Shown here piece by piece: positions 11,760 to 56,639 of a stretch of 64,000 nucleotides of DNA. The translations under genes were made by a program, and so were the position numbers. The stretch lies in the IMG/VR virus record IMGVR_UViG_3300044259_000172; one strand, given 5' to 3'. Position 1 is the stretch's first letter. Each line of letters opens with the position of its first letter. Under the pieces are notes generated by a model that saw nothing but the letters and a program-made list of their open reading frames with translations, had not been told where the DNA came from and made no database searches. Source of the stretch: a virus (lineage: Duplodnaviria; Heunggongvirae; Uroviricota; Caudoviricetes).

Positions 11760-11768
11760 TTGAGGGAA

Positions 11769-20974: not shown

Positions 20975-21250
20975 TTACTTAGAAAGCTTACGATTTTCTG
21001 CGGTATTAATAGCCCGCTTATAAGCATCCTTGATTGTTTCTTTTTCTTCAATTTCTGATTCAGGTTTAGCTCGGTCCTTGATAATCTGGCGAATAATTCC
21101 AGTATCATATCCCTTATTCTTAATTTCCTGATAAACTTCCTTGATATCATCAGAAAAGGTCTTCATCTCTTCAGTAAGAGATTCAATCCTTTGTACAAAT
21201 CCAAAAAGATCTGAATCATCAATAGAGGTTACTGTAACATTAGAGTTCAT
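20975..21250 (-). CDS. gapR: GapR-like DUF2312/UPF0335 nucleoid-associated DNA-binding protein
   Basis: LFGFVQRIESLTEEMKTFSDDIKEVYQEIKNKGYDTGIIRQIIKDRAK closely matches DUF2312 consensus (IERIERLeEEkk..sdDIKeVYaEAKgnGfD.k.lR.ii..RK). Confidence 0.65.
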   Translation of the reverse strand: MNSNVTVTSIDDSDLFGFVQRIESLTEEMKTFSDDIKEVYQEIKNKGYDTGIIRQIIKDRAKPESEIEEKETIKDAYKRAINTAENRKLSK

Positions 21251-21767
21251 GTACTTTATTTTCCTTTTTTACAAGATTTGAAATGTATCCAGAAACTTCT
21301 GGAATTTGGTTATACATTTTTTGGATTACATCGAATGGAATAGGAGGACCCATTCCGGCTTTAAATCTTTCCTCTACCCTACGATTAAGTTCATCAATAG
21401 GAGTATTAAAGAAAGTTTTGACAAAAATATCCAAATTTTTATTTTGGAGAAATTTATCAATTTGAGATTTCAAAATCTTAAGATTAAGATTTGTATCAGA
21501 AATGACCAAAATATGGTCATAATCATTTTTAATGAAATCATCAATGGCTTCGTCACAAATTTTTGTGACGACTTTTTCTTTATCAAACTTATAAAATCCT
21601 GCATTATATTGATTGTTTGTCAAAAGATTTCGAACATCATCTCGGTTCACATTAATAAGAAGTGAACCTTTTGAGCAAAGTTTATTGACCCAGGTCGTCT
21701 TACCAGAAGCAGGAGGGCCAATAGTAAAAATAATGCTCTTTTTCATTTTCTTAACCTTTTTAATCAT
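21240..21767 (-). CDS. pnk: polynucleotide 5'-kinase, T4 Pnk kinase domain only (no phosphatase domain)
   Basis: SIIFTIGPPASGKTTW...INVNRDDVR...VISDTNLN aligns with T4 Pnk ILTIGCPGSGKSTW...NINRDDYR...VIISDTNLN; 175 aa only. Confidence 0.75.
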   Translation of the reverse strand: MIKKVKKMKKSIIFTIGPPASGKTTWVNKLCSKGSLLINVNRDDVRNLLTNNQYNAGFYKFDKEKVVTKICDEAIDDFIKNDYDHILVISDTNLNLKILKSQIDKFLQNKNLDIFVKTFFNTPIDELNRRVEERFKAGMGPPIPFDVIQKMYNQIPEVSGYISNLVKKENKVHEL

Positions 21768-24984: not shown

Positions 24985-25557
24985 TTATGTAAACAGTTTA
25001 TAGATTGCAATTTCATCAATTTTATCAATAAATCTTGAACCAATTCCTGTCCATTTTCCCGAAGGCATTAGAGGTTTCTCATCCATCAAATGAAATCTAT
25101 TCTGAATAGGAATCCATGTTAACCAATTTTTAGAAATGATATCAAAGAGATAAAGATCTCCATAAGGATTTCGATCCAAAAACATTTGACATGCCCAAGC
25201 CGTTCCACCTTTCACAAAACCAGTTTCTGAGTCCAAAGGAGCAACTGCATAAACAGAATTTGAATCTTTAATTTGATAAAAATTTCTTCGAAGAAGATTA
25301 TTTGTATGAATGCTAGAAGAAGGAAATTTTCTCTTGATTTTCTTATTTGCTCTTTTTACAAAAGGATCAGCTAATGTTAAAAGTTCATCACTCAATATAT
25401 TAAAGAAAAGTCTATTTGAATATTTTTCTTCAAAATGATAATGAATTACTTTATGATTTACAGATTGTGCAATTGCTCCAAATGCAAGATCAGCACCTTG
25501 GGCTCCACCAGAAAAACAAATATTTTCACCTTTATTTCCATCAGCATAGATATTCAT
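24985..25557 (-). CDS. SLOG/DprA-LOG-like Rossmann-fold protein (SGGAQGAD motif)
   Basis: N-terminal ICFSGGAQGADLAFGAIA resembles the TGGAxGxD nucleotide-binding signature of the SLOG superfamily; weak. Confidence 0.4.
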   Translation of the reverse strand: MNIYADGNKGENICFSGGAQGADLAFGAIAQSVNHKVIHYHFEEKYSNRLFFNILSDELLTLADPFVKRANKKIKRKFPSSSIHTNNLLRRNFYQIKDSNSVYAVAPLDSETGFVKGGTAWACQMFLDRNPYGDLYLFDIISKNWLTWIPIQNRFHLMDEKPLMPSGKWTGIGSRFIDKIDEIAIYKLFT

Positions 25558-27607: not shown

Positions 27608-27613
27608 AATATT

Positions 27614-27689
27614 GGTGTGCCCTGTCAGGCTTGAACTGACGACCCTCTGCTTAAAAGGCAGATGCTCTAACCAACTGAGCTAAGGGCAC
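27614..27689 (-). tRNA. tRNA-Lys (anticodon UUU), CCA encoded
   Basis: minus-sense GTGCCCTtaGCTCAGTTGGTTAGAGCatCTGCCTTTTAAGCAGAgggtcGTCAGTTCAAGCCTGACAGGGCACaCCA: 7-bp acceptor, D-arm, anticodon loop CUUUUAA, T-arm all canonical. Confidence 0.8.
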
Positions 27690-35810: not shown

Positions 35811-36239
35811 TTATTTTGAAAAATTTATGAATTCTGATAAAGTTTTTCTCTTTAAAGGCTTTTTTAAAAGAGGAACTTGAGGATAAGCTACTGCTCCTCC
35901 GCCTGAGGTATTCACTGGGGCATCTTCTTCTATTTCAGCAATAAGAATATCAACCATTTCATCCGTCATTTCCTCTTCTTTAAGAAGAGCTAGAGCTGAT
36001 GACATTCTTATAAATGGGTTCAAAGAACCTGGAACTTTTGAAACAACTCTTTTTAGATTATAAGCAACTCGATCAAATGGGCCATAATATTTCTTTTGAT
36101 CTGGAGTTAAATTAGAGACAATCATGTTACCATTTTCATCTACAATACCAGCTTTAAATGCTGGAGTATATTCCCATTTTTGGGCAATTATTTTAATAAG
36201 TCTGTACGTAAAATAGGAATCTACAAAATTGCGAATCAT
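35811..36239 (-). CDS. hypothetical protein (142 aa)
   Basis: ORF track. Confidence 0.45.
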   Translation of the reverse strand: MIRNFVDSYFTYRLIKIIAQKWEYTPAFKAGIVDENGNMIVSNLTPDQKKYYGPFDRVAYNLKRVVSKVPGSLNPFIRMSSALALLKEEEMTDEMVDILIAEIEEDAPVNTSGGGAVAYPQVPLLKKPLKRKTLSEFINFSK

Positions 36240-36580
36240 TTTTGAATTTCTTTCTTGAGTTCTAATAGAAGATTTCTATCTATATTTACCATATCCAAAG
36301 ATCTATCTAATAGAACTAAAAATGTATTGATAATAAACCAATCCTCTTCCTTTGTGGATGCTTTTATAAGTCTTATGACATAAAGAGGATGGAATACATT
36401 AAATAAAATAATGAGATGATTTATTATCAATCTAAAATTGGGAGGCTTTTTCCCGTTTTTTAATTTTGAAATCAATTTCTTTAAATGGGTTATTCTGACC
36501 AGATCTTCTTCCAAATCATCTACATGGAATTCATTGTTCAGAAACATTTTTGCTGAAGAATACACTTCTTGTTTTGTCAT
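36236..36580 (-). CDS. hypothetical protein (about 103-114 aa; start probably the internal Met at 36547)
   Basis: ORF track. Confidence 0.4.
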   Translation of the reverse strand: MTKQEVYSSAKMFLNNEFHVDDLEEDLVRITHLKKLISKLKNGKKPPNFRLIINHLIILFNVFHPLYVIRLIKASTKEEDWFIINTFLVLLDRSLDMVNIDRNLLLELKKEIQK

Positions 36581-37112
36581 GCGGAGGTCTTACGTGTCCT
36601 TGTAAAGCTACTGAGACCTTGCGATAAACCTCTAATGCCTGATTAGGAGAAAATCTAGAAGAAAAATTCTTCAAAAATGATTGATAATCTCCAATTTTAC
36701 AAAAGTCTCGCATTTCAGTAGCACTGATATTATATTTATCGCGCATAGCAAAATTCAAAACTCCTAATTTGGATTTATAATCCTTTTGATATTTCTTAAA
36801 CAGTGAAGAAAATTCCTCACATCTATCACCACCTACAATAAAATTGATTTCATCATATTCATCAGAATTAAAAGAATCAATAATTCCAAAAATTCCGGTT
36901 TTTCCAAGATTTGAAAGATAATCTCCAAACCCCATCTGATAAATGATATCATATTTTTCATCAAATGAAAGAGGATCGGTTTTGTTATTTTTAGTAAAAG
37001 TAGGGCAAATGAAAAATTCACCCTCTAAATGTTTTCCAAAGTTAAATAATTTCTCATGACCGATATGAGGAGGGTTAAATCTCCCATATGCTATATTTGC
37101 TATCATTTTCAT
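36531..37112 (-). CDS. HxGH nucleotidyltransferase, NMN adenylyltransferase (NadM)-like
   Basis: GRFNPPHIGH (G.F.P.H.GH) near N-terminus and ISATEMR (ISGT.IR-like) near C-terminus. Confidence 0.5.
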   Translation of the reverse strand: MKMIANIAYGRFNPPHIGHEKLFNFGKHLEGEFFICPTFTKNNKTDPLSFDEKYDIIYQMGFGDYLSNLGKTGIFGIIDSFNSDEYDEINFIVGGDRCEEFSSLFKKYQKDYKSKLGVLNFAMRDKYNISATEMRDFCKIGDYQSFLKNFSSRFSPNQALEVYRKVSVALQGHVRPPHDKTRSVFFSKNVSEQ

Positions 37113-37909
37113 TGTGATTTAAATTCTTCATATTTTGTATAAAAGATATTTGGAATTTGGACATTCTTTCGTTCCAATCCTTTGATGGTTTCTTCCAAAA
37201 CGAATGCACAAGATTTTAAAGAAAATCTCTTATCCATATTCTTCAAAATATCAATAGAATCCATCCTATATCCATTTTCTTGAGAATATCTTTCTGGAAT
37301 AATAGAATCTCTAAAATTTTTAAATGAATGACCTAGAATAAAAGGTTCATCTAAGATTTTTACAGGATTTACCAAATATTTTCCAGTAGCTTCGGACTTA
37401 TATGTATAGGTAGATTTAATCAGTCCTTCAAATAGAGTATAACGGACCCTTTGAAAAGTATTAACCTTTGTTCGATCCATAGAAAGAATTACAGGATTAT
37501 GGACAATATTTACAAGATGAAATAATAGTTCATTTCTATAAAGTGCTTTAAATGGATCATTCGAAGAAACAGTGGTAGCTTCCTTAACCCAATCATCATA
37601 AATATTCTTTTGTGAAATGATATTAATATCAACTTGGACATCCTGGAAACACAAGAAAATTGTATTTCCATGCGTTTCGATTTTATATCCAGACTTTACA
37701 AATAGACCTAGTAGTTGAGAGATTTCATGGTCACTATAAAGAGCTACATCAATATCTCCAAATTTAGCATTAGGATTTGCCGAATTTGATGATCCTATAA
37801 ATTTAAAATCACTGCCTCTAAATCCTAGATTAAGAATAAATTGATTCACTTTCTTCTTGTCATCTTGATTTGCATCTCGAGTTAAGCCCTTAAAAATCTT
37901 ACCACCCAT
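37109..37909 (-). CDS. putative Pol-beta-superfamily nucleotidyltransferase-fold protein
   Basis: IGSSNSANPNAKFGDIDVALYSDHE fits the GS-x(9-13)-DxD nucleotidyltransferase signature. Confidence 0.45.
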   Translation of the reverse strand: MGGKIFKGLTRDANQDDKKKVNQFILNLGFRGSDFKFIGSSNSANPNAKFGDIDVALYSDHEISQLLGLFVKSGYKIETHGNTIFLCFQDVQVDINIISQKNIYDDWVKEATTVSSNDPFKALYRNELLFHLVNIVHNPVILSMDRTKVNTFQRVRYTLFEGLIKSTYTYKSEATGKYLVNPVKILDEPFILGHSFKNFRDSIIPERYSQENGYRMDSIDILKNMDKRFSLKSCAFVLEETIKGLERKNVQIPNIFYTKYEEFKSQ

Positions 37910-37910
37910 A

Positions 37911-38702
37911 TTAATTCACTTCTCCAAAAATTTTGTCATTAAGAGGAAAATCATCCTTATTAAGATCTAAACATAATTTTACTAGTTTATCATCTATTTT
38001 CATTATAATTCCTTCATAGATTTCGCCATTCCTTGGTTTAATAGATTTAAAATATTCCACAAGTTTATTCTTGATTTTGTATCTAAGTTCCCTATATTGC
38101 TTTTTGAAGGAAAAGATGTCAGGGTGAGAATCAGCCAATTCCTTTATTTCTTGCCCTAAATTTTTATCAAATTCTACCACAATTCCACCAGGAAGCTTAA
38201 AATTAACCCCTTCTACTTCAGGCCATTTTCCATACATAGAAAATTTAACATCATGAAGAATAAAAGTGTCGGCTACAAATGTATCATGAGGAAATCTAAT
38301 AGTAAAGGATCGATATTCATCAATAACCTTTGAATATTTCAATGGAAAATATTCAAAAGAAATATCTTGCCCCTTCTCAGGATATTGATTTGCAATATTA
38401 ACCCTAATAAACCTTTGAAAAGATTCAGAATCAATTAGAGTTTGTCCAATCAATCCAATATCTTTGGAGAAATCTGTTTCTTTTGCCCAGTAAACATATT
38501 GGTAATAGGAATAGCATTCAGGAGAATTTGCTGTCTGAAAATACATATCCCCTTCACTATCAATTCCAAATGAGAAGAAAATTCCATCTTCCTTTTTTGT
38601 TTCAAAGATCAAATTACCCATATGATTATGGATATAATCCCACATAGAAATTTGATCTCTAAAAGAGCAATTATAGATATGAGGAATAGATTTCCGTTTC
38701 AT
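37911..38702 (-). CDS. hypothetical protein (263 aa)
   Basis: ORF track; in same tightly packed operon as the ThyA-like gene. Confidence 0.5.
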   Translation of the reverse strand: MKRKSIPHIYNCSFRDQISMWDYIHNHMGNLIFETKKEDGIFFSFGIDSEGDMYFQTANSPECYSYYQYVYWAKETDFSKDIGLIGQTLIDSESFQRFIRVNIANQYPEKGQDISFEYFPLKYSKVIDEYRSFTIRFPHDTFVADTFILHDVKFSMYGKWPEVEGVNFKLPGGIVVEFDKNLGQEIKELADSHPDIFSFKKQYRELRYKIKNKLVEYFKSIKPRNGEIYEGIIMKIDDKLVKLCLDLNKDDFPLNDKIFGEVN

Positions 38703-39706
38703 TATTTAAGACTCCAATAATTGGTTTGAACTCTCTCACCTTTAAAAGAGAACGATCTTGTCAATTTAAAATTTTTCAATAATGAATGATCCACTGAATC
38801 TGTATTCAGAATAGATGGGCAGTGATCATTCACATTTACAAATAATATTTTGTCAAACTTATCACACTTTTTATAATAAGTAAATTCAAATAATGCTAAT
38901 TTTTCTAAAAAAATGAAATAATCAAAATGTCCATTCTGATCAATTAAAGACATATTAATCCAATCAATCTCTCCTTCATCAAGATTAATCATAGTCTTTG
39001 AAAAGACAAATTTAAGAAAATCTATAAGATCACTCCATCTATTTTCAAAGACTTCAACAAAATAAAAATTGTTTATATTAATTCCAGTAAGATTAAAAAT
39101 TTCTTTAAATTCTTTTCCTGTTCTATTTTTTATCCATTCAATGCAATCTTTCTTTATAGAAGATAAAGGAATATGACTAGATTGAGAAGCCATTTTAGCC
39201 CCATTAGCCTTCACTTCAATATCTTCTCCATTTGATAATTGCATATCTCCAGAATTTTTAGCCTTTTTCGACCCCTCAGTTAGAAGAATAAACCCGTATT
39301 CACCTTTTCCTACAGAATTCTTTGAAAATGAAGTAGGAACATAATTTAATAATTTGGTAAGATTATAATTTGTTAATTTTGGATTAATAATATCATTCAA
39401 AGAAATTTGAGTTTTATAAGAAAGATTCAAATAATCTTGATCAAGAATTTTACCGCCGGTAATATCTTTAACCAATGATAAGATTTCTGTTGATGATTTT
39501 CCAGTATCTGGATCAAATAAAACTTCATTCATAAAATAACTAAAATCAGGGGAATTAAAGGAAATTCCCCTGGTTTCAAAGAGTTCTTTAGAAGCCATTT
39601 CTATTTTATCGGAAGTCATAATATAATAGGACTTATAAAGATATTGATAATCATTACACTGATCGATCCTCTTGGACAATTCAGTTTTTAGATCAGAAAT
39701 TTCCAC
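38702..39706 (-). CDS. hypothetical protein (334 aa)
   Basis: ORF track; 1-bp overlaps with neighbours. Confidence 0.5.
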   Translation of the reverse strand: MEISDLKTELSKRIDQCNDYQYLYKSYYIMTSDKIEMASKELFETRGISFNSPDFSYFMNEVLFDPDTGKSSTEILSLVKDITGGKILDQDYLNLSYKTQISLNDIINPKLTNYNLTKLLNYVPTSFSKNSVGKGEYGFILLTEGSKKAKNSGDMQLSNGEDIEVKANGAKMASQSSHIPLSSIKKDCIEWIKNRTGKEFKEIFNLTGININNFYFVEVFENRWSDLIDFLKFVFSKTMINLDEGEIDWINMSLIDQNGHFDYFIFLEKLALFEFTYYKKCDKFDKILFVNVNDHCPSILNTDSVDHSLLKNFKLTRSFSFKGERVQTNYWSLK

Positions 39707-39708
39707 AT

Positions 39709-40503
39709 TTATGCCTTAAATTTATCTGCTGCATATTTTAGATGTTCGATGAAATAATCATATGAAGTAAGTTTGGAATGAACAGTCATATCAATAAAAT
39801 CAATGATCTCACCATCTACAAAATTATGATTTGCATTATCCAATTTAGCCCACTGAATTGCATCTTCCCAATGCTTTTCATAAATATGAGCAGAACCTTG
39901 ATTGATTGTCAAAATTCCGAGATTAACATCAATTCCTCTTTGAAGCAAAAGGATTTGAACAACTTTTGACATCATTGTGAATGTGAATGAATCATACCCA
40001 AATCCCCAAATCATATCCTGAGAACGCATATTGACAACAGTACATAGCTTATTGTTTCTAATAAAGAATTGCATAGAGGTTGTACAAGGAACATCCTTGG
40101 ATCCTCTCGGATTTTCTCTCCAAATATTAAGAAATGCTTGACGAGAATCATTGTCAGCAATCAAAGAATCTACAACATAAGAAACTTGATCAATGAATTT
40201 TGGACCATAAGCTCCATTCAAAAATACTCCATTATCGGAATAATTTACATAAGATTTCATATATTGAGTAATATCAGATACTTTATTAGATCCTGAACAA
40301 ATCCACCACGCTTCACCAAAAGCAAAGGAATAATTAAGCTTTCTATCCTTTAGTGTGATAATTGGATCAAGCATATCAAATTTAATTTGGTATCCTACAA
40401 ATTCTTTGATGAGTTGACCTCTAGGTGAGACTTCATCCCCAAATGAAATAATATCATTAATACAATTTTGCCATTTTAAATTAATATCAAACAATTTAAT
40501 CAA
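39709..40503 (-). CDS. gp42: ThyA-fold pyrimidine hydroxymethylase, most consistent with deoxycytidylate (dCMP) hydroxymethylase (T4 gp42-like)
   Basis: VPCTTSMQFFIRNNKLCTVVNMRSQDMIWGFGYDSFTF aligns to ThyA [38 protein letters not shown] with catalytic Cys conserved and the pyrimidine-recognising Asn replaced by Asp (GYDSF), as in dCMP hydroxymethylases. Confidence 0.55.
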   Translation of the reverse strand: MIKLFDINLKWQNCINDIISFGDEVSPRGQLIKEFVGYQIKFDMLDPIITLKDRKLNYSFAFGEAWWICSGSNKVSDITQYMKSYVNYSDNGVFLNGAYGPKFIDQVSYVVDSLIADNDSRQAFLNIWRENPRGSKDVPCTTSMQFFIRNNKLCTVVNMRSQDMIWGFGYDSFTFTMMSKVVQILLLQRGIDVNLGILTINQGSAHIYEKHWEDAIQWAKLDNANHNFVDGEIIDFIDMTVHSKLTSYDYFIEHLKYAADKFKA

Positions 40504-41000
40504 ACCTTTTCTTTATCAATAACAAATGAATAATAGAATGCTAAATAAGCAGCGCAATCAATAAGACTATCAGCTTTTCCTTCAAAATTTGGAGAAGATT
40601 TAGAATTAAAAAGAGATTCAATTCTTTGGATCTTTGTCATAATCATATGAATATATGAAAAATCTTCAAATGGAAAATAATTAATTCTTGGATCATCAAG
40701 TCTAAATGTTTCATCATTAGCCTTGTTAGAATTATAATCTAAAGTCTTTTTTCTTAAAATAGAAAAAGTATCTTCGGAAATATTTTTATCCGTCAAAAAA
40801 TTATAATAATCTTTTACTACTCCAAAGATATAAATGAGTTCTTCTTTTGGAATTCCTGAATGATCAATTTTTTGAGTAGAAACCCAATCATCAATAAAGT
40901 AAACTAATTCATTAACATAGGTACATTCTTCTGCATATTGAGGACCTGAAAATGGAAAATTACCTTCATAATCCTCAAATAGTCTAATACTTTCAATCAT
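40500..41000 (-). CDS. hypothetical protein (166 aa)
   Basis: ORF track. Confidence 0.5.
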   Translation of the reverse strand: MIESIRLFEDYEGNFPFSGPQYAEECTYVNELVYFIDDWVSTQKIDHSGIPKEELIYIFGVVKDYYNFLTDKNISEDTFSILRKKTLDYNSNKANDETFRLDDPRINYFPFEDFSYIHMIMTKIQRIESLFNSKSSPNFEGKADSLIDCAAYLAFYYSFVIDKEKV

Positions 41001-41042: not shown

Positions 41043-41261
41043 TTATTCTGGAAAATACACCGGAATAAAAATGTAATTTTCAGAATTTACTTCAAAATCT
41101 CTAGACTTAGAAGATTGCTTAAGAGCAGCTCTAGCTTTTCCCTCCGTAGCATAAATTTTAGAAGTGAGAGAAGAATATCCTCCTCCAGTCTTTACTCGAG
41201 TTCCATCCTTTTTAGCGATAACAACACCTAGAAGTTTAGCCATTTTTAACATTCTCCACAA
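41043..41261 (-). CDS. small protein, paralog A of a duplicated pair (72 aa)
   Basis: GGYSSLTSKIYATEGKARAALKQSSKSRDFEV...IPVYF, similar to 41745..41948. Confidence 0.45.
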   Translation of the reverse strand: MWRMLKMAKLLGVVIAKKDGTRVKTGGGYSSLTSKIYATEGKARAALKQSSKSRDFEVNSENYIFIPVYFPE

Positions 41262-41745
41262 TTTGATCCCAATGAATAGGATAATAATTAGTCATTTCCA
41301 ATGAAATATTCATATGGTTGTCTGAAATTTCTTTTCTCATTCTATGGACATGTCCATGAACATTTAATTTAACTCTATCTGTATTCACCAAAACTGGTCG
41401 ATGAGTGAATAAAATTTCTCTTTGAGGTTGCCAGGATTCCATAATCTTTTCGAAATATTTTAAATATTCCTTCATTGGAAATTTGTCATGATTACCAAGA
41501 ATAAGACGCTTATGGCCATTAAGCCTAGGCATAATCCTATGGAAAGATTCAATATCAAATGAAATATCACCCAAACAATACCATTTATCGGTTGGCTTGA
41601 CGAATTCATTATGCCTTTCAATGATAGTTTCATCCATATCTTTAATCGAATCAAACCCTGGCCTAACTTGATCACCTTCATAATTAATGAATTTGAGAAT
41701 ATTAGAATGTCCGAAATGGTGATCTGAACTAAACCAAACATTCAT
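41236..41745 (-). CDS. calcineurin-like metallophosphoesterase
   Basis: DHHFGH, LGDISFD, GNHD, GHVH motifs. Confidence 0.65.
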   Translation of the reverse strand: MNVWFSSDHHFGHSNILKFINYEGDQVRPGFDSIKDMDETIIERHNEFVKPTDKWYCLGDISFDIESFHRIMPRLNGHKRLILGNHDKFPMKEYLKYFEKIMESWQPQREILFTHRPVLVNTDRVKLNVHGHVHRMRKEISDNHMNISLEMTNYYPIHWDQIVENVKNG

Positions 41746-41948
41746 TATAGATATACCGGGACGATTTCAATTTCACCAGCCTCCCACTGTCTAAACTTAC
41801 TAGAACCAGCCATAGCTGTTCTAGCTGAATTTTCAGAAGCATAAGTCTTTCCAATTTCTGAATATCCTCCATTTTGAGTTTTTACGATATCTCTTGTATT
41901 CTTATAAAGAGCAATCCATGCGATAGGTAGATCAACTTCTTGAACCAT
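41745..41948 (-). CDS. small protein, paralog B of duplicated pair (67 aa)
   Basis: GGYSEIGKTYASENSARTAMAGSSKFRQWEA...VPVYL. Confidence 0.45.
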   Translation of the reverse strand: MVQEVDLPIAWIALYKNTRDIVKTQNGGYSEIGKTYASENSARTAMAGSSKFRQWEAGEIEIVPVYL

Positions 41949-41959
41949 TATTTTCTCCT

Positions 41960-42382
41960 TTAAATTTTTAAAACAACTTCTTGGATAAGCATTTTACAAA
42001 GACCATCAATTGGATAATCCTCATTTTCGTCTGTTCCATTCCATAGAAAAATCTTTTCTCCAACATCAGTCTTTTGAGGAATAAGTGATTCCCTAAGAGT
42101 AATACCTGAAAGAAGGAATACATGAAGAGTATAAGATGGATATCGAATAGTTGCTATAGGAAACCAATCAGACTCGGATGTCGTATAACCGAGTTCTTCC
42201 TTAAATTCTCGAGCATTAGCTTCATATGCCCCTTCATTTTCTTCAACTTTTCCACCTACAAAAATTGACTTTCCAGACATAGGTCCATGATCCTTTTGAA
42301 CAAAGACAAATTTTCCAGACTTAGTCATTGCAATAGAAAGAGTATAGGCTGGGCGAAATGCGAATGGAATATCTTCTGTCAT
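41960..42382 (-). CDS. NUDIX hydrolase
   Basis: Nudix box GGKVEENEGAYEANAREFKEELG. Confidence 0.7.
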   Translation of the reverse strand: MTEDIPFAFRPAYTLSIAMTKSGKFVFVQKDHGPMSGKSIFVGGKVEENEGAYEANAREFKEELGYTTSESDWFPIATIRYPSYTLHVFLLSGITLRESLIPQKTDVGEKIFLWNGTDENEDYPIDGLCKMLIQEVVLKI

Positions 42383-42567
42383 TCTGAAATCTTTTCTTCA
42401 GAATTAAATGGATTGATTACAAAATCATGATTATCTACATCATAATCAGTAAATACATTTCCCATAGTATCTGTGTCCAAAAATACGATCAATTCTTGAA
42501 CAACTTTCCTTTGAAGACCACGATTGAAAATTGTAATTCTTACTTGCTTACCTTTATATTCGTTCAT
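42379..42567 (-). CDS. hypothetical protein (62 aa)
   Basis: ORF track. Confidence 0.4.
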   Translation of the reverse strand: MNEYKGKQVRITIFNRGLQRKVVQELIVFLDTDTMGNVFTDYDVDNHDFVINPFNSEEKISE

Positions 42568-42578
42568 ATATTTTTCCT

Positions 42579-42770
42579 TTAATCTAAATCTACAGTTGGA
42601 TTAATACCAACTCTATTAAAATCCCATTTATTATAAGCTAAATACGTTCTGCCTAAAGTATCCTCATATAAATTTACTGTTTTCCCATTCACAATATCAA
42701 TAAATCTATTATCTTCTATAAGTTTCATAGGAAAACCAAAGGTTAAAAACTTTAACATAGATGTTCTCAT
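42579..42770 (-). CDS. hypothetical protein (63 aa)
   Basis: ORF track. Confidence 0.4.
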   Translation of the reverse strand: MRTSMLKFLTFGFPMKLIEDNRFIDIVNGKTVNLYEDTLGRTYLAYNKWDFNRVGINPTVDLD

Positions 42771-43246
42771 AACTCAAACACTGTCAATTCTATATTGGGG
42801 TATTTTTTTAGGTTTTCTTTGATGATTTCTTCTATCTTTGACCAATCACCTCCGCCGAGTCCTGCTCCAATTTTAGGAATTGCAATTAGAACTGGTCGAT
42901 CCAAAAGCTCATAATATGAGAAGAATTTATCAAAACATGAATTGATAGCATCGTATGAAATTCTCATTCCAGGACCATATGTTTCTTGGGTGAAGAGATT
43001 CCAGACATCAGTTCCCGAATAATTACAAGCTAATTGATTAGTTCCTACTAAATCATTTGAATATCTCGATAAGCACAATTTTCTATAAGCAGTGAAAGAT
43101 AAAGGGAACTTTGCTTTAAATTGTTTTGCAAATCCAGCACTCATAACTCCTAAACAATTCACTCCATGAGCAATAGCATCATATTCAGAAATAAATTCAA
43201 AAAGATTTCCCCTTTTATAATTAATCTTGGATTGGGACAAGTTCAT
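42767..43246 (-). CDS. macro-domain protein (ADP-ribose binding/hydrolase family)
   Basis: YKRGNLFEFISEYDAIAHGVNCLGVMSAGFAKQF and PKIGAGLGGGDW match macro-domain GDI..DAIVNAAN..GGGV and P..G.G..G motifs. Confidence 0.65.
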   Translation of the reverse strand: MNLSQSKINYKRGNLFEFISEYDAIAHGVNCLGVMSAGFAKQFKAKFPLSFTAYRKLCLSRYSNDLVGTNQLACNYSGTDVWNLFTQETYGPGMRISYDAINSCFDKFFSYYELLDRPVLIAIPKIGAGLGGGDWSKIEEIIKENLKKYPNIELTVFEL

Positions 43247-43529
43247 ATGCCTTTACAATTTTTTCAATTTGACGAACCTCAAAAATTTCTCGTTCTTTGA
43301 AATATTCGAATTCATATGGACCTTCATATTGAGATTCTGTTGAGCCTACAGCATATTCAGTTTCGTAAAATTTTCCTGTAGATTTATCTCTAAAAATTTG
43401 ATTATGAATCGTTGACCATCTAGTCTGATCTATAATTTTGTTTTCAATAGTTTCAAAATTTTCATCATCATCAAATGCAATATCAATTAATTGCTGCTTT
43501 GTAAACTTTTTCGAAATATATTTTCTCAT
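43221..43529 (-). CDS. hypothetical protein (102 aa)
   Basis: ORF track. Confidence 0.45.
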   Translation of the reverse strand: MRKYISKKFTKQQLIDIAFDDDENFETIENKIIDQTRWSTIHNQIFRDKSTGKFYETEYAVGSTESQYEGPYEFEYFKEREIFEVRQIEKIVKAYELVPIQD

Positions 43530-44014
43530 AGTTTAAATCCTCTATGTTCTACTAAATCATTAAAATATTCAAGTTCTACAGGAACCATTTCAACATTACA
43601 CAATTCGAACATTTTCTTTACAGGTTCAGAATTCCATCTAGATTCAAATTCAGGATTTTCAATGTAAACAAATTTTTTAATTCCGGCCTGAATTGTATGC
43701 TTACAACAATCGATACAAGAGAAATGAGTAGAATAAATTGTACAATCTACAACTGACCTTCCAGATCTTCCAGCAGAAAGGATTGCATTAATTTCCGCAT
43801 GTTCAGTATACAAAAGTTTCACTTCTCTAGCATTATACCAAGCTAACAAATCCGGCATCTTTCTAGGAAATCCATTATACCCCGATGAAATAATTTCTTG
43901 ATCCTTTGTTATTACTGCCCCAACTTTAGTAGAAGGATCTTTTGATAATTTTGATGTCAAAAGGGCAGTTTGAAGAAAAAATATATCCCAACGAGTATCA
44001 ATTTTACTTGTCAT
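43526..44014 (-). CDS. cd: dCMP deaminase (T4 cd-like)
   Basis: HAEINAI and SCIDCCKHTIQAGI (H-A-E and PCxxC zinc-binding motifs). Confidence 0.8.
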   Translation of the reverse strand: MTSKIDTRWDIFFLQTALLTSKLSKDPSTKVGAVITKDQEIISSGYNGFPRKMPDLLAWYNAREVKLLYTEHAEINAILSAGRSGRSVVDCTIYSTHFSCIDCCKHTIQAGIKKFVYIENPEFESRWNSEPVKKMFELCNVEMVPVELEYFNDLVEHRGFKL

Positions 44015-44168: not shown

Positions 44169-44983
44169 ATAAATCTCCTAGTAATTGGAATTTCTACTTC
44201 TTCAACATCCGGATTTCCACATTTTTCTTTCAGAAAATACAAAATTCTATTCTTTTCTTCCTCATCTTTAGGTTTGAAGAACCATCTTTTAGATTTTCCA
44301 TCCCAATAAAATCCATTTGATTTTACAATATCTTTATAATTAAATCCTACATTGGCATAAAGAACAATTTCAGGAGTATAAGCCTTTTCTAAAAGGGATT
44401 GAAATGCAGTTTTACCATCTTTGAGTGGAAATGAAAGAGCGTGCAATGTAGCTCTACAATCATTTTCAGCTCTATGATGTTCAAACCAAAATCCTAGACG
44501 AAACGCAATATAATCTAAAACTTTTGAAGAAATATTCAAAGAACCCCAATCAGGATCATTAGCTGAACATCCCCAAACAATTTTCTTTAGAGAAGGAAAT
44601 CTTTTTTCCATCTTTGATCTATCAAATTTAGCATTATGAGCAATTGCGACATCAGCTTTATTAAATAGGGAAGTAACTGAATGATCTTCAAAATGTTTGC
44701 CTTCAAGCATTTCATCATTCATCCCAGTCAAAGATTTAATCTTCTCAGATAAAGGCTTTGAAGGTTGCTCAAACCCTACATAAGGCTTATAAACTTTTGT
44801 GATTTTAAAATCATCTGTAAATGCAAATGGCAAAATACAAATTTCTGTAATTTCCGAATCATCTTCAAGCCCTGTTGTTTCTGTATCAACAACAATCCCC
44901 AAATTTGTTCCTTCTGCATCAGTTGAATAAATGTTCTGACGATCGAAGAACTTAATGATTTTGTCTTTATTTTCTAATGTCAT
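44165..44983 (-). CDS. DnaQ-like DEDDh 3'-5' exonuclease
   Basis: Exo I VVDTETTGL and Exo II IAHNAKFD motifs. Confidence 0.7.
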   Translation of the reverse strand: MTLENKDKIIKFFDRQNIYSTDAEGTNLGIVVDTETTGLEDDSEITEICILPFAFTDDFKITKVYKPYVGFEQPSKPLSEKIKSLTGMNDEMLEGKHFEDHSVTSLFNKADVAIAHNAKFDRSKMEKRFPSLKKIVWGCSANDPDWGSLNISSKVLDYIAFRLGFWFEHHRAENDCRATLHALSFPLKDGKTAFQSLLEKAYTPEIVLYANVGFNYKDIVKSNGFYWDGKSKRWFFKPKDEEEKNRILYFLKEKCGNPDVEEVEIPITRRFI

Positions 44984-45687
44984 TTAACCTGTATAAACCT
45001 ATGATTGCCAAATTTGGCCTTAGTGTCGATAATGCAACATGTCAAGGCTCCGCCAAAAACTGCTCCTGTATCGATATTAATTTGAGATGAAAGGACTGAT
45101 GGTTTATTATCAAGAGGAGTGTGACCATGTACCACAAAATACCCTCCTTCAAATTCTCCATCATAAGCATTTGATCGCCTGGACCAAATCAAAGTTTGCT
45201 CAGATTGTTCTTCAAGAGTAAGAGAAGGATCGAGACCTGCATGAACAAAAACTACATGATCAACTTGATAATAAAGTTTTGTATTCAAATAAAATTCTTC
45301 ATGTTCTTTAGAGAACAAATCTTGAAATTTGAGAGTATCCTTTGTATAGCCATAGGATTCAAGACACTGCCATCCTCCATTATATACCCAATTTTCCTGT
45401 GCAGACCTATTTCCCCGGAAAGCTTCAATCAAAAAATCCTCATGATTGCCTCGAAGAGTAGTCACTTTATTAATAGGACTATCATGATCTAGAATATTTT
45501 TCTGTAAATCAATGATATAATCTACTACACCTTTAGAATCAGGGCCTCGATCAATATAATCTCCCAGAAAAATAATTTCAGCCCCATCTTCAGGGTTCTT
45601 AATATCAGCATCTTCGAAAATCAATGGAATAATTTTCTCGAGAAGATCAAGGCGACCATGAATGTCGCCAATTGAATAAGTTAACAT
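44980..45687 (-). CDS. Ser/Thr protein phosphatase-type metallophosphatase (lambda PPase/ApaH-like)
   Basis: GDIHG, GDYIDRGP, GNHE motifs. Confidence 0.7.
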   Translation of the reverse strand: MLTYSIGDIHGRLDLLEKIIPLIFEDADIKNPEDGAEIIFLGDYIDRGPDSKGVVDYIIDLQKNILDHDSPINKVTTLRGNHEDFLIEAFRGNRSAQENWVYNGGWQCLESYGYTKDTLKFQDLFSKEHEEFYLNTKLYYQVDHVVFVHAGLDPSLTLEEQSEQTLIWSRRSNAYDGEFEGGYFVVHGHTPLDNKPSVLSSQINIDTGAVFGGALTCCIIDTKAKFGNHRFIQVK

Positions 45688-45735: not shown

Positions 45736-46653
45736 TTAATGTACAATCCTTTGTTCAAGTTCTTTTCTAAATTGTACGACCCCCGATCCCAAATTTCCTC
45801 CTAAATTATCAACTTCATTATCTAGAAGACTTCTAACTTGGTGTTCAACTGGAGAAGCATGCATCGGTTTTGAAACAATTAATCTATCAAATAGCTTGAG
45901 ATCATCCTGAATAGTAGGTCTATTTCCATCATGAGTTAAATATGAAACTCTTGCACATCTAGCCGCAGAAATTCTTTTTACCATTTCAATCAAATGATAA
46001 CTATTTCTTTTCACAATTTCTAAATTATTAGAATTATTTGAATTTTCAGCTTCCCAAATACCAGTTGCCACTAGATGATCTGTTACCGCATAATAATCAT
46101 ATTCTCTAATAAAAGGTAAATGCCATTCATCGGCATATAGTTGTCTAGGTTCACTAGAAATGACGATATCATTCATTTTATATGCTAATTCTTGAAATTC
46201 AGGTTGAGCATCTGGATGGGCTCTAAGTTCAAAGAAATTATCCATATCAGTTGCTGTCATAATTACAGTAATATGAGACCAAGGTTCAATTACTCTATTG
46301 ACAATTTGCTTATGAACCCCAGTCCAATAAAGCAGATATGCTAGTCCAATTGCAGTATATCCTGAAAGTTTCCAAACTGATTGAGCCAAGAATTTCTTGA
46401 AAGGCGACAATTCAACCTTTGCTTGCATCCCAGATTGATTTGCTCCCCAATGAACAGGAGAAGCCATATCATTCATAATATTTGACACAATTTTCTTAAA
46501 TGGAATAGCTCTTGAAGAAGCAGCATTTCTAGAAAATACTCGATGAGTCATGAATTCAGAATGAATAAATCGAGGATATTTCAGTTCCCATGTAGTTATT
46601 CTCTTTCCTGTAGTAGTAACAGAATCAAGCAAAAGTTTAGCAGAAATAGTCAT
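45736..46653 (-). CDS. thyX: flavin-dependent thymidylate synthase ThyX
   Basis: MTHRVFSRNAASSRAIP fits ThyX RHRx7-8S signature (RHRIASYNELSGRY). Confidence 0.6.
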   Translation of the reverse strand: MTISAKLLLDSVTTTGKRITTWELKYPRFIHSEFMTHRVFSRNAASSRAIPFKKIVSNIMNDMASPVHWGANQSGMQAKVELSPFKKFLAQSVWKLSGYTAIGLAYLLYWTGVHKQIVNRVIEPWSHITVIMTATDMDNFFELRAHPDAQPEFQELAYKMNDIVISSEPRQLYADEWHLPFIREYDYYAVTDHLVATGIWEAENSNNSNNLEIVKRNSYHLIEMVKRISAARCARVSYLTHDGNRPTIQDDLKLFDRLIVSKPMHASPVEHQVRSLLDNEVDNLGGNLGSGVVQFRKELEQRIVH

Positions 46654-47192: not shown

Positions 47193-47645
47193 TTAATCCT
47201 TAAATTCAAATGGAGTAGTTTCCAAAATTTTACGATGTCTAGGCTCAGGAGCTACCCATCCTTCAGGTTTAATAACATCCAACCCATTTGTATTCGGTCT
47301 AGAAGCCTTTGAACCTCTCACTTTTTCCATATTTGCAGATTGAACTGCATCCCAGTGGGCATCCCCATTTACCTTCATGAGATCAAGAGTTCCTACAGCA
47401 AAATAAATCAAATCGATCAAAGCATCAATAAGACCTACAGTATCTCGCTCTTCAATTGCAATAAGACCTTCATCCAATTCTTCTCGAATCATAACATCCA
47501 AACGTTGGCGAAGATTATGGACTGTAGGTTCCCAGTCTTTATTGAATTCAAATTTTTCATGAAATGCTTGAAGATCAGAAAAAAGTTTTGTTTTCATTGT
47601 ATTAATGTATTGATTATTTTGAGCATAATTTGTGGTAATATTCAT
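47193..47645 (-). CDS. MazG-like all-alpha NTP pyrophosphohydrolase (possible dCTPase/dUTPase analogue of T4 gp56)
   Basis: IREELDEGLIAIEERDTVGLIDALIDLIYFAVG matches the MazG/HisE EE.GE...A......EL.DvL motif. Confidence 0.55.
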   Translation of the reverse strand: MNITTNYAQNNQYINTMKTKLFSDLQAFHEKFEFNKDWEPTVHNLRQRLDVMIREELDEGLIAIEERDTVGLIDALIDLIYFAVGTLDLMKVNGDAHWDAVQSANMEKVRGSKASRPNTNGLDVIKPEGWVAPEPRHRKILETTPFEFKD

Positions 47646-48508
47646 AAAAATTCTTTCATATTGTATGATTTAGTAAAGTCTCCATAGAGAACATAAATGG
47701 AACTTTTAGTATTAATTCGCTTGACGTCATTTAAATTTAAAGATCTTACTCCGTCAAAAGATCTTATTTCTGATGAACCTTTATAAATTTCATCATCATT
47801 ACTAGTTTTATAATTACAGATTATACTACAAATATTCTTCCTTTTAAACAGAAATGTACAGTAATCATCTATAAATTTTAAATCTTCATGGTTAAATACT
47901 CCACCTTTTACAGAATAATCATCATAAGAAGCTGTAATATAAGGAGGATCAAAGAAATATAAATCTACTGAAGTTGAAGATTGTTCAAGAAATACTTTAT
48001 AATCTAATTCTTTAATATTTTGAAATCTAGAAGAAATAAATTTTATTGATTTCAATCTTGCATCAAATTGAGCAGATTTCGTAAAGAAATGCCAAGTTGA
48101 AGTATATTTTCCATATTTGTTAAGTCTATAAAGACCAAAGTGGGCACAATTTTGAAGATACCAAAATAGAACCGCTCTATTTAAAGTATTGATTTCGGTC
48201 TCATTGAATTCATCTCTCTTTTGATAAAAGAAATCATGACTATTCATATTTTTATCTGTTAATATAATTCTTGATAAATCTTCAAATTCTTGAGAATTAC
48301 ACCATCTATAAAGATTGATGATATCGAAATTCAGATCATTGCCAAAACAAGAACCTTCTTTTCCAAAAAATCCTGAAATTAATCCTGTCCCCATAAATGG
48401 TTCTACTATAGAAATTTTAGAAGATCCGAGGATTTCCCGGATCTTCTTTTTCTCCTTCAATTTAGAACCAGCCCATTTAAATGGGCTTAGTTTAAGTTGG
48501 TCATTCAT
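47642..48508 (-). CDS. dam: DNA N6-adenine methyltransferase (Dam); start revised to ATG 48508
   Basis: FKWAGSK near N-terminus and DPPY catalytic motif; ORF-track extension overlaps helicase gene. Confidence 0.8.
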   Translation of the reverse strand: MNDQLKLSPFKWAGSKLKEKKKIREILGSSKISIVEPFMGTGLISGFFGKEGSCFGNDLNFDIINLYRWCNSQEFEDLSRIILTDKNMNSHDFFYQKRDEFNETEINTLNRAVLFWYLQNCAHFGLYRLNKYGKYTSTWHFFTKSAQFDARLKSIKFISSRFQNIKELDYKVFLEQSSTSVDLYFFDPPYITASYDDYSVKGGVFNHEDLKFIDDYCTFLFKRKNICSIICNYKTSNDDEIYKGSSEIRSFDGVRSLNLNDVKRINTKSSIYVLYGDFTKSYNMKEFL

Positions 48509-49919
48509 TAAATTTAAATCCTCCTGATTTCGTCTTATCAAAAATAGGAGAATCATTTATTTGAGATTTCGGAGTAGCTTTTTTATTTCCTTCGTAAAGT
48601 TTATCTTCAGGATTTAAATCTGTTCCTTCAATGATATTATCATCTACCTCAAAAACTGTCATTCTTGCCTTATCTACTCCTAGCATAATTCTTCGATATT
48701 TTGATTTATCATCATATCTAGATTTCAATTGTTTAATCATAATCAAACCCTTGGATTCATATTCTTCTGTATTAATGATCCCCCAAATAAGGTCGGCAGT
48801 CATAGGAACACCATGAGATTCGGAAGTATTTTCAAGAGACAAGTCGGAGGCATCTTGTCCTGAACGATTTGTCTGCATACCTGTCCAGATTACTAGATCA
48901 TTTTCCTGAGATAATCCTCTCAATTCTTCTGCAATTGCTTTATTGTAAGAATATAGATTTGATGGATCCTTCACTCTAACAGAAGCGCAGATAGAAAGAT
49001 AATCTACAATTACAATTTTAGGTTTAAATCCCTTTTTAATCTGAAGATCTTTTAAAAGAGCTCTAAAATGATTTGCATTTGCTGAAGTCATAGGATATTC
49101 TTTGATGAATAACCTTCCTTCAGTATGAGATTTAATATCGGATATCTTTTGAAGATAATGAGGCTTTAGAATTGATCTAACTTCAGAAATTTTAAGATGA
49201 GTTAGATTTGCATCAATTCTTTCACGAATTTTAAATTCGGACATTTCCAAAGTGATATAAAGAACATCATATCCTTGATGAAGATATGAAGCTGCAAAAT
49301 CACATAAAAATCCGGTTTTAAATGTATTTGTTCCACCCATAAAAATATTCAAGGATTTTGTTGGAACTCCACCTTGAGTAATTTTATTGAAAATAGGAAG
49401 TTTAAATGGAATTAGATGTTCTTTTGAATTATAAGCATCATGGGCCTTTTCAGCATCTTCAAAATAATCATGACCTACTGTATTATCAAATGAAATTGCA
49501 AGAGCATCTTTAACGAGATCAGGAATTGCATCTCGAGGAGTATTTTTATCTCCGCCATCATAAATTTGAATGGCGGAAGAAATTGCTAAATAAAGAGCTC
49601 TATCTTGGCAAAATTTTTCTGCCAAAGATTTAATCCATTCATCTTTCATCTTATAACGATTCATAAGATGAGTTTCATTTAGATTTTTGAACTCTTCGAT
49701 ATCATGATCATTAAGATCATTTCTTTTTCTTACTTCAATATTCAATTCTTCAGGTGAAGGAATTGACCCATAGTTATTAGCATAACTCTGAATCTCTTCA
49801 TAAACAGCCTTTTCAACTTTTTCTTCAAAGTATTCAGGCTTTATATAAGGAAGTACTTCTCTTGAAAAATTATCATTATGAATTAATGCATTAAGAATTG
49901 CCTGAGATTTTGATGTCAC
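48501..49919 (-). CDS. gp41: replicative DNA helicase (T4 gp41, DnaB family)
   Basis: Walker A GGTNTFKTGF, DnaB-like H3/H4 motifs, size 472 aa, position next to uvsX. Confidence 0.85.
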   Translation of the reverse strand: MTSKSQAILNALIHNDNFSREVLPYIKPEYFEEKVEKAVYEEIQSYANNYGSIPSPEELNIEVRKRNDLNDHDIEEFKNLNETHLMNRYKMKDEWIKSLAEKFCQDRALYLAISSAIQIYDGGDKNTPRDAIPDLVKDALAISFDNTVGHDYFEDAEKAHDAYNSKEHLIPFKLPIFNKITQGGVPTKSLNIFMGGTNTFKTGFLCDFAASYLHQGYDVLYITLEMSEFKIRERIDANLTHLKISEVRSILKPHYLQKISDIKSHTEGRLFIKEYPMTSANANHFRALLKDLQIKKGFKPKIVIVDYLSICASVRVKDPSNLYSYNKAIAEELRGLSQENDLVIWTGMQTNRSGQDASDLSLENTSESHGVPMTADLIWGIINTEEYESKGLIMIKQLKSRYDDKSKYRRIMLGVDKARMTVFEVDDNIIEGTDLNPEDKLYEGNKKATPKSQINDSPIFDKTKSGGFKFNE

Positions 49920-52699: not shown

Positions 52700-52713
52700 T
52701 ATAAATTACAACC
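52691..52713 (-). terminator. hairpin (ggttgta-catataaat-tacaacc) overlapping stop codon of DNA polymerase gene
   Basis: 7-bp inverted repeat read directly; followed by A/T-rich tract. Confidence 0.45.
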
Positions 52714-56231: not shown

Positions 56232-56639
56232 TTATTTTCTCTTCTTTGAATTTACAGGAATTTCAAATTCTTTGATAATTTCTTTTTTTTGATCTTCAGA
56301 AAGAAATTTAATCATTTCCAAAGATTTATCAAGAGATAATTTATGATATTTTTGAAGAGTATTTAATACTTCTTGATCATTTTTACCTGAAAGCTTTTTA
56401 GGCCATTTTGACCATCTCTTTCTTTTTGAAACTAAAGTATGAAGAAAATGATATTGGCATGATGGAGGAATAGAAGGCCTCATATTCATTTCATCAGCCA
56501 ATAAAATTGTATCCATATGGAGTGATAAACCTCTATTTACCATAAAGGCATTATATTCATTTGGATCCAATTCTCCAGTCAGAATTTGATTATCAGAAGA
56601 TTCAGAAACAGAATTTATGAAATCAAAAGGAGTGCTCAT
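56232..56639 (-). CDS. gp62: clamp loader small subunit (T4 gp62)
   Basis: FMVNRGLS and RKRWSKWPKK align to T4 gp62 FMVENALS / GKRYGKWAKL; 4-bp overlap with gp44 gene. Confidence 0.7.
   Translation of the reverse strand: MSTPFDFINSVSESSDNQILTGELDPNEYNAFMVNRGLSLHMDTILLADEMNMRPSIPPSCQYHFLHTLVSKRKRWSKWPKKLSGKNDQEVLNTLQKYHKLSLDKSLEMIKFLSEDQKKEIIKEFEIPVNSKKRK

Follow-up and report, generated by a model that had tools for sequence, protein, structure and literature searches.

The product of a ThyA-fold homologue of thymidylate synthase (TS) can be judged from a few diagnostic positions, numbered here as in E. coli ThyA. Replacement of Asn177 by Asp goes with 2'-deoxycytidine monophosphate (dCMP) as the substrate, and replacement of Leu143 by Asp or Glu with non-methyl products, through access of water (PMC13326640). 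Replacement of Asp169 by Asn marks the flavin-dependent 5-hydroxy-dCMP synthases of phages RB69 and DLP3, Asn being found in all 5-hydroxy-dCMP synthases tested, and RB69-type enzymes were long mis-assigned as hydroxymethylases (PMC13326640). Known pathways for 5-hydroxymethylcytosine (5hmC) and 5-hydroxycytosine employ GT-B glycosyltransferases, NTP_transferase-fold pyrophosphorylases, kinases and HAD phosphatases. On metagenomic contigs with modified cytosine, genes for TS homologues are found together with those for PRA-PH/MazG and dCMP deaminase (PMC8670742), and the DNA of Stenotrophomonas phage AXL3 resists 35 of 37 restriction enzymes, the two cutters recognising A/T-only sites (PMC7504290). 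Here a ThyA-fold gene is described in a stretch of 64 kb (the window) of the roughly 154-kb genome behind IMG/VR virus record IMGVR_UViG_3300044259_000172. It is followed directly by the genes A334, B263, C266 and D193 and a DUF7207 gene, together called the cassette (Table 1). A sequence-only reading had proposed this arrangement as a candidate operon that makes and then hypermodifies 5hmC. The locus is probably better explained by two independent modules standing side by side, a ThyA-fold dCMP 5-hydroxymethylase and a separate backbone cassette, because the cassette and the ThyA-like clade are distributed separately.

The ThyA-fold protein keeps the catalytic Cys (E. coli ThyA C146), and equivalents of E58, Y94, R126, R166, S167, D169, H207 and Y209 are present in a MAFFT alignment. 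At the Asn177 position it carries Asp, both in the HMMER alignment to TS chains of the PDB (query 'gfgyDsf' versus 'gvpfNia') and in the MAFFT alignment, as the sequence-only reading had stated for both residues. The substitutions H147T and Q165M are the same as in T4 gp42. The Leu143 position, three residues before the Cys, is also occupied by Asp ('KDVPC', with 'SDFMC' in gp42), and Asp169 is retained ('MRSQDM'). The resulting D/D/D combination at positions 143, 169 and 177 is shared with T4 gp42, with a 58%-identical orthologue on contig L013 and with 80 of the 80 closest IMG/VR relatives. The best PDB match is the CMP hydroxymethylase MilA (E-value 3.3e-20), followed by thymidylate synthases (~1e-12) and T4 dCMP hydroxymethylase (1.6e-9), and the NCBIfam TS equivalog models give 41–60 bits against cut-offs of 108–405 (for example 59.6 versus 174.55). 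Judged by these residues the ThyA homologue very probably acts on dCMP specifically and does not methylate it, and D143, D169 and D177 place it with the 5-hydroxymethyl-dCMP (5hm-dCMP) synthases of the T4 gp42 type, making 5hm-dCMP its most likely product. In the mechanism proposed for this folate-dependent enzyme, the catalytic Cys would attack C6 of dCMP, the Asp at the Asn177 position would select cytosine, and the Asp at the Leu143 position would let water add to the exocyclic methylene to yield 5hm-dCMP; incorporation into DNA would then follow through kinases and the phage polymerase.

The nearest relatives of this protein, 35–53% identical, are found in small phages, including the pelagiphages HTVC119P and HTVC200P, Stenotrophomonas phage AXL3 and phages with a gene called 'pyrimidine hmase', and the clade is common in small marine and soil phages. 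Among the 80 closest ThyA-like loci, a MazG-type pyrophosphatase gene and an AXL3-gp29-like (deoxynucleoside monophosphate (dNMP)-kinase-like) gene each accompany the ThyA-like gene in 65, and a dCMP deaminase gene in 34. The GC content of the window gene, overall and at third codon positions, equals that of its neighbours and leaves no compositional trace of recent transfer. It is plausible that the phage puts 5hmC into its own DNA, because of the D/D/D signature, of MilA as the best relative and of the restriction-resistant DNA of AXL3, and to this extent the proposal of a dCMP-hydroxymethylase-like ThyA is supported. The genes for dCMP deaminase, ThyX, a MazG-like protein and Dam, which had been cited in favour of a 5hmC phage, are indeed present in the window. 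All four also occur in relatives that lack the ThyA-like gene, a point against the decoration of 5hmC by the downstream genes. The dCMP deaminase gene is present in L001, L002, L004 and L006, PRA-PH genes hold the MazG position in L001, L002 and L004, and a Thy1 gene is syntenic with the window ThyX gene in L002 and L004. The MazG-type gene of the window is a candidate for a companion dCTPase, yet it too is kept in relatives without a ThyA-like gene.

The distribution of the cassette separates it from the ThyA-like gene. A334 homologues are very rare, seven among 5.8 billion proteins, and all lie on T4-like contigs. The cassette is found in about eight rare T4-like metagenomic lineages (L001, L002/L007, L004/L005, L006, L003, L012 and L013 besides the window; L002 is represented also by L007 and L017), the relatives being visible as partial contigs of 7–21 kb each, and the ThyA-like gene stands directly upstream of it in only two of these lineages. 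L001, L002, L004/L005, L006 and L003 share one arrangement, in which up166, A, B and C are followed by zero to three small genes, D and the DUF7207 gene, and no ThyA-like gene stands in the interval between up166 and A; up166 orthologues directly precede the A homologue in L001, L002, L003, L005 and L006. The order of the window (up166, ThyA-like gene, A, B, C, D) is repeated in L013 only, where the ThyA-like orthologue occupies the same position behind up166. The DUF7207 gene lies downstream of D193 in every lineage in which the region is visible, and at the same position in L001, L002, L004 and L013. A hidden Markov model (HMM) of ThyA, run over the cassette loci (up to 21 kb each), matches only the window, L013 and a gene of a different type in L001, which leaves at least four lineages with the cassette and without a ThyA-like gene on their partial contigs. 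Conversely, homologues of A, B, C, D or up166 occur within 6 kb of none of the 80 closest ThyA-like IMG/VR loci. Metagenome scans for further ThyA-like or cassette loci gave only a 163-kb contig that had been found before, and the IMG/VR scan for A334 returned the same contig and no other. The cassette is inherited independently of the ThyA-like gene, and the simplest history is a single-gene, lineage-specific insertion of the hydroxymethylase between two backbone genes, up166 and the first gene of the cassette. The gene of different type in L001 (2959–3792) encodes a second kind of ThyA protein with N143/D169/D177, 22% identical, at the ThyX position; its residues fall outside the published product rules.

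The enzymes that known pathways would call for are likewise missing. Among the window's open reading frames (ORFs) of at least 120 residues, scanned against PHROGs and Pfam, hypermodification enzymes of known kinds (glycosyltransferase, NDP-sugar pyrophosphorylase, DNA kinase and others) are absent, and none encodes a group transferase for the hydroxyl (GT-B glycosyltransferase or carbamoyltransferase) next to the ThyA homologue. The cassette has no kinase, HAD protein or isomerase for donor activation; D193 carries a HIGH motif and does not have the NTP_transferase fold. Co-inheritance of the cassette with the ThyA homologue across genomes is not seen on the partial contigs. The cassette is thus without the enzyme types of the known tailoring pathways for 5hmC, 5-hydroxycytosine or 5-hydroxymethyluracil (5hmU), and it has part of its genes in common with phages that seem to lack a pyrimidine hydroxymethylase. 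The idea that the downstream genes decorate 5hmC is not supported by these results; a hypermodification pathway is not supported because the cassette recurs in related phages that have no ThyA-like gene.

A different arrangement is seen on L100, a distant T4-like JGI contig of 54 kb (positions 6001–8268 and 10236–12828). A C-like gene, a gene for a KLDG/EGIVI...KYK protein and a D-like gene stand together there, and this cassette-like trio adjoins a convergent cluster of genes for ThyA (D/D/D), dCMP deaminase and NT5C and for an NTP_transferase/APH fusion similar to the sugar-activation enzyme of RB69. The 317-residue KLDG protein has no match in the PDB. The ThyA cluster of L100 can be regarded as a real candidate for cytosine glycosylation.

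The last nucleotidyltransferase gene of the cassette, D193, connects it to the cyanomyoviruses. The protein has the motifs 'GRFNPPHIGH' ('HIGH' at residues 16–19) and 'ISATEMR', and matches Pfam CTP_transf_like with 25.3 bits (cut-off 21) and phrog_3041 with an E-value of 1e-23, which upholds the HxGH nucleotidyltransferase of the sequence-only reading. Searches with tblastn find homologues of D193 in 511 phage records (best E-value 6e-19), for the most part from phages of Synechococcus and Prochlorococcus, whereas Synechococcus phages are absent from the leading genera in the ThyA search. By sequence it is a clear homologue of the cyanomyovirus (Kyanoviridae) 'cytidylyltransferase'. In the cyanophages gp41 is followed by MazG, small genes, a variable protein, a protein of 300–420 residues and the cytidylyltransferase. 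K-[WY]-D-G stands at position 37 of the 300–420-residue protein, which also has an EGFV...KLVDR tail. Alignment of this family with the B263 family by hhalign gives a P value of 0.004, compared with 0.2–0.6 for control pairs. B263 is therefore, if this suggestive link holds, probably a divergent relative of the gene preceding the cyanomyovirus cytidylyltransferase; the cyanophage family itself has no match in the PDB. In cyanophage S-SZBM1 the function of the D193 homologue (S-SZBM1_140) was called unclear, and the protein was detected in the virion proteome (PMC9146016). S-SZBM1_139, a hypothetical protein numbered just before it, was also detected in purified virions by liquid chromatography–mass spectrometry (PMC9146016). 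These hints suggest that the conserved cyanophage pair may be packaged in virions.

The relationship of D193 to nicotinamide mononucleotide adenylyltransferases (NMNAT) leads to an alternative for the cassette as a whole, in which D193 would make NAD-type dinucleotides as an NMN adenylyltransferase, the upstream macro-domain and Nudix proteins would act on ADP-ribose derivatives, and the C- and B-like proteins would serve an NAD-linked process, for example counter-defence against NAD-depleting immunity. The HxGH and ISxTxxR motifs and weak matches to NMNAT models are compatible with this, as is one cyanophage record that labels the D193 homologue a nicotinate-nucleotide adenylyltransferase. 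Genes for a macro-domain protein (42767–43246), a Nudix hydrolase (41960–42382) and a metallophosphoesterase lie directly upstream of up166 (trio at 41236–43246, minus strand), and it is possible that this trio is ADP-ribose- or NAD-related. On a 370-kb jumbo-phage contig (L014, 8001–15579), and also on L015, a remote C-like gene stands among NAD-salvage genes, 1.5–6 kb from genes for an NMNAT-Nudix fusion, NAMPT and NAD kinase, with a radical-SAM gene and a CCA-type nucleotidyltransferase gene nearby. However, the C-like match on L014 is remote (E-value 4.5e-4), the NMNAT equivalog models of NCBIfam give D193 13–21 bits against cut-offs of 112–341, the window has no NAMPT gene, and the function of the cyanophage enzyme is itself unclear. 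To our knowledge a Pol X-like fold has no role in NAD chemistry. A role of the cassette in NAD metabolism keeps a small chance.

C266 is the best characterised member of the cassette. An exhaustive HMMER search finds 16 relatives, and the AlphaFold model, made with 14 relatives, has a pLDDT of 90.2 and a pTM of 0.84. The Pol-beta motif G39-S40 ... D52-x-D54 ... Q92-x-D94, with the catalytic triad D52, D54 and D94, is invariant in 14 sequences. The best PDB sequence match of the family profile is Thermus PolX (E-value 0.012), with G-S, GDxD (GDLD) and QVD aligned and all three carboxylates in register. In the model, the palm and the adjoining C-terminal subdomain superimpose on Pol X enzymes, whereas other Pol-beta-fold transferases align over 113–133 residues only. 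Pfam DNA_pol_B_palm gives sub-threshold matches, in two of five members (best E-value 0.027), and does not reach its gathering score. C266 is thus a minimal PolX-like enzyme by its predicted fold and not by family threshold, and the Pol-beta-type nucleotidyltransferase noted earlier is recognised here as resembling the family-X DNA polymerases; as a member of that family it would be expected to add deoxynucleotides on a template. A tblastn search of phages with A334, C266 and B263 gives nothing significant. The 1026-residue protein P0024, which has a C-like stretch, was uninformative.

The proteins of 263 and 334 residues, described before as lacking annotation, indeed have no match in Pfam, PHROG or NCBIfam. 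Public gene calls for A334 (P0001, 305 residues) and B263 (P0008, 236 residues) are truncated at the N-terminus; the longer ORFs used here, one with a GTG start, cover residues conserved across homologues, including the region of the K37-x-D-G motif of B263. In eight B263 sequences of 16–35% identity, K37-x-D39-G40, Y69, F78, E117, R207, E230-G231 and K242 are invariant. Their succession along the chain corresponds to motifs I, III, IV and V in ligases and capping enzymes, with motifs III–V (E117, E230-G231 and K242) assigned by eye. The HMM of the family places K-x-D-G on motif I of the window DNA ligase and of T4 Rnl2, although the scores are not significant, and the sole database hint is a Pfam RNA_ligase match (E-value 0.072) of the L001 member, at its motif I stretch. 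In hhalign comparisons of the B family with the window's RNA and DNA ligases the probability stays below 1%, and B263 is best described as a protein with ligase-type motifs only. A 'capping protein' near the MW202621 hydroxymethylase gene, considered as a relative of B263, proved to be a methyltransferase. A334 is mostly helical and has an invariant block, SVGKGE...GD...D-x-E-x-K...ASQ..H, which possibly represents a PD-(D/E)xK-like core. AXL3 gp29, which has a similar size and also stands beside a ThyA homologue, is unrelated to A334 and is a P-loop kinase.

For the cassette in the two-module reading, we tentatively propose a role in the processing of nucleic-acid ends or gaps. This is the likeliest of the roles considered here, though by itself less likely than not, and is favoured because the best-characterised member, C266, is polymerase-like and its neighbour B263 has ligase motifs. 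C266 would add nucleotides in the manner of PolX, B263 would possibly seal by a lysyl-nucleotide type of mechanism, and A334 would perhaps cleave; the activities of these proteins and of D193, and with them a repair-type role, are what we infer from motifs, a model and analogy. The B-like protein and the 'cytidylyltransferase' would be the pair common to cyanomyoviruses, and C266 and A334 additions specific to the rare T4-like clade.

A variant in which the substrate is RNA, with C266 as a template-independent RNA or tRNA 3' nucleotidyltransferase, B263 as an RNA-ligase-type sealer and A334 as an RNA-processing factor, would complement the tRNA-repair genes of the phage, and is given a similarly small chance to that of NAD metabolism. 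A tRNA-Lys(UUU) gene (27613–27689, minus strand) shares the window with genes for an RNA ligase, a CCA-adding tRNA nucleotidyltransferase, a PNK-like P-loop kinase and a NinI/PNK-type phosphoesterase (16107–17162, 17424–18689, 21240–21767 and 44980–45687). Together these look like a T4-style tRNA-repair kit against anticodon nucleases. Somewhat less probable still is that the cassette is a DNA-directed enzyme system not described before, restricted to the rare T4-like clade, which acts on the phage's own modified DNA, either by placing a nucleotide-linked group on 5hmC, which if true would be a new route of hypermodification, or by a PolX/ligase-type patch repair that restores the 5hmC-containing DNA after attack by a host glycosylase or nickase.

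Other doubts concern the ThyA-fold protein. It might be an ordinary or back-up TS, a dCMP methylase (giving 5-methylcytosine DNA as in XP12) or a 5-hydroxy-dCMP synthase, given that TS models do match, that the product is read from three positions and that RB69-type enzymes were mis-assigned in the past. The alignments, in which a retained Asn and ordinary TS scores were looked for, instead show Asp at position 177 and equivalog scores below their cut-offs, and these argue against an ordinary TS; ThyX is in any case already encoded in the window. The change of Leu143 to Asp correlates with non-methyl products, and the retained Asp169, in the absence of D169N, argues against a 5-hydroxy-dCMP synthase of the RB69 gp48 type. 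Taken together these alternatives have only a slim chance.

Several observations weigh against the two-module reading. The hydroxymethyl product that we infer for the ThyA-fold protein rests on three residues, and an AXL3-type dNMP kinase is not found in the 64 kb of the window, out of roughly 154 kb. In two lineages (the window and L013) the cassette directly adjoins the ThyA-like gene, ThyA(Asp) genes lie 2–4 kb from cassette genes in L001 and L100, and with the relatives seen over 7–21 kb only, a functional link between the ThyA-like gene and the cassette may still exist. For the cassette, the NAD-salvage surroundings of the C-like gene in L014 point elsewhere, the B263 family has no significant similarity to any ligase (PDB profiles, T4 Rnl2 and the window's ligases), and A334 has no fold match, nor a match to a glycosyltransferase-like fold. 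Even so, the hydroxymethyl group of 5hmC is probably not what the cassette acts on. The most direct form of that proposal, in which D193, C266 and B263 activate a donor or nucleotidylate the hydroxymethyl as a leaving group after replication, by analogy with the pyrophosphorylation of 5hmU by 5-HMUDK, and A334 completes the transfer, is very unlikely: the adjacency kept in two lineages 40–70% different in protein sequence, the ThyA(Asp) genes near cassette genes, three nucleotidyl-transfer-type proteins in a row and an A334 free for assignment favour it, but the cassette lacks a ThyA-like gene in the visible 7–21 kb of L002/L007, L004/L005 and L006 and directly follows up166 in L003, the 80 ThyA-clade loci lack cassette genes, D193 and probably B263 belong to families of hundreds of cyanomyoviruses, C266 resembles DNA polymerases and not group transferases, and the scanned ORFs hold no known tailoring enzyme.

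The source phage is a highly divergent T4-like myovirus. The window encodes gp43 polymerase, gp44/62 clamp loader, gp45 clamp, gp46/47, UvsX, gp41 and gp61, as well as DNA and RNA ligases, the late sigma factor gp55 and baseplate proteins. The gp43 polymerase is ~35% identical to polymerases of cyanomyoviruses and Rhizobium phages, and no phage in GenBank has DNA nearly identical to the region. All ORFs of the sequence-only reading are present, as a tight array of six minus-strand genes (36531–41000) whose junctions are overlaps of 4 or 1 nucleotides or gaps of 1–2 nucleotides. The label 'operon' is by itself little informative, because tight co-directional packing is the rule throughout the T4-like window, and promoter-like and terminator-like sites in the region show no excess over shuffled expectation.

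Table 1. Genes at and around the ThyA-fold gene, with positions in the 64-kb window.
Feature	Coordinates	Strand	Length	Remarks
DUF7207 gene	36236-36580	-		Pfam PF23837, 7.4e-16
D193	36531-37112	-	193 aa	HxGH + ISxTxxR nucleotidyltransferase; Pfam CTP_transf_like; NMNAT-like
C266	37109-37909	-	266 aa	Nucleotidyltransferase resembling minimal family-X enzymes (Pol beta, ASFV Pol X)
B263	37911-38702	-	263 aa	Ligase/capping-enzyme-like motif order
A334	38702-39706	-	334 aa	GTG start; orphan
ThyA-fold gene	39709-40503	-	264 aa	TTG start overlaps stop of upstream gene; Pfam PF00303 Thymidylat_synt, 1.5e-21
up166	40500-41000	-	166 aa	
dCMP deaminase	43526-44014	-		Pfam, 9.2e-23
ThyX	45736-46653	-		phrog_85, 8.7e-77
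MazG-type NTP pyrophosphohydrolase	47193-47645	-		phrog_671, 1.1e-25; possible dCTPase analogue
Dam-type methyltransferase	47642-48556			

The up166 protein matches phrog_18404 (E-value 7.5e-8) with residues 104–160. With this C-terminal part it covers the second half of that two-domain, MazG-type family (positions 189–248), and the MazG-like protein of the window covers the first half (5–137), so that the two genes may correspond to the two domains of an enzyme that is fused in other phages. A hint of DUF1599 ('nucleotide modification associated domain 1') in up166 (E-value 0.044) was too weak and was not used. Elsewhere in the window, a homing endonuclease gene (55248–56150, plus strand) lies on the opposite strand between the genes for gp43 (52706–55213) and the clamp loader (56232–57592), and the early region encodes a DprA-like protein and a 5'-3' deoxyribonucleotidase (24985–25557 and 11769–12257, minus strand).

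With the ThyA-like gene, a T4-like lineage of marine or freshwater phages joins the likely producers of 5hmC, and the case indicates that the hydroxymethylase gene moves, inserted on its own, between a T4-like backbone and small phages. In a dense phage genome adjacency is weak evidence for a pathway, and it was the comparative distribution that separated the modules. The cassette is the more interesting leftover, in which a PolX-like enzyme stands with an orphan protein and two genes whose relatives are kept in hundreds of cyanomyoviruses; to meet an enzyme so like a family-X polymerase, and modelled with confidence, is uncommon for T4-like phages. Solving the KxDG protein and the 'cytidylyltransferase' would annotate a widespread pair of cyanophage genes.

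Compared with the described systems, the ThyA-fold protein shares with T4 gp42 the fold, the catalytic Cys, Asp at positions 177, 143 and 169, Thr147 and Met165, and MilA is its best solved relative. The genome resembles that of T4 in its general plan and in having genes for a dCMP deaminase and a MazG-type pyrophosphatase. However, the protein is only ~27% identical to gp42, no glucosyltransferase gene is adjacent, and a gp56-type dCTPase and a gp1-type kinase are not identified in the window. Closest is the clade of AXL3 gp28, HTVC119P, HTVC200P and MW202621, which has the same D/D/D residues (the AXL3 homologue is 35–40% identical). The small phages of this clade keep the gene with those for a MazG-type pyrophosphatase and a dNMP-kinase-like protein (65 of 80 loci for each), whereas here it stands in a T4-like backbone without that kinase nearby. 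RB69 gp48 and DLP3 gp80 are also ThyA homologues (N177D, L143E) of T4-like phages, with clustered hypermodification genes that include one for a nucleotidyltransferase, but the D169N of these enzymes is absent from the window protein, and the cassette has no counterpart to the GT-B glycosyltransferases, the NTP_transferase/kinase fusion, the HAD phosphatase or the sugar isomerase of their arabinosylation clusters.

For the cassette, the comparison is with viral repair systems and with the cyanomyoviruses. African swine fever virus (ASFV) and Phaeocystis globosa virus have PolX-plus-ligase repair modules, which the PolX-like C266 and its ligase-motif neighbour recall. Unlike the minimal family-X polymerases of these viruses (ASFV Pol X and the Phaeocystis globosa virus PolX-ligase fusion), C266 has ~100 extra residues and no Pfam-level membership; its partner B263 is not demonstrably a ligase, and no adjacent AP endonuclease or glycosylase is identified. 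The cyanomyovirus pair differs in that its proteins are longer (about 300–420 and 360–390 residues) and in that the cyanophages lack homologues of C266 and A334, but its first protein resembles B263 in the K-x-D-G at position 37 and in an EGFV...KLV tail, and the pair stands in the same order downstream of gp41 and MazG.

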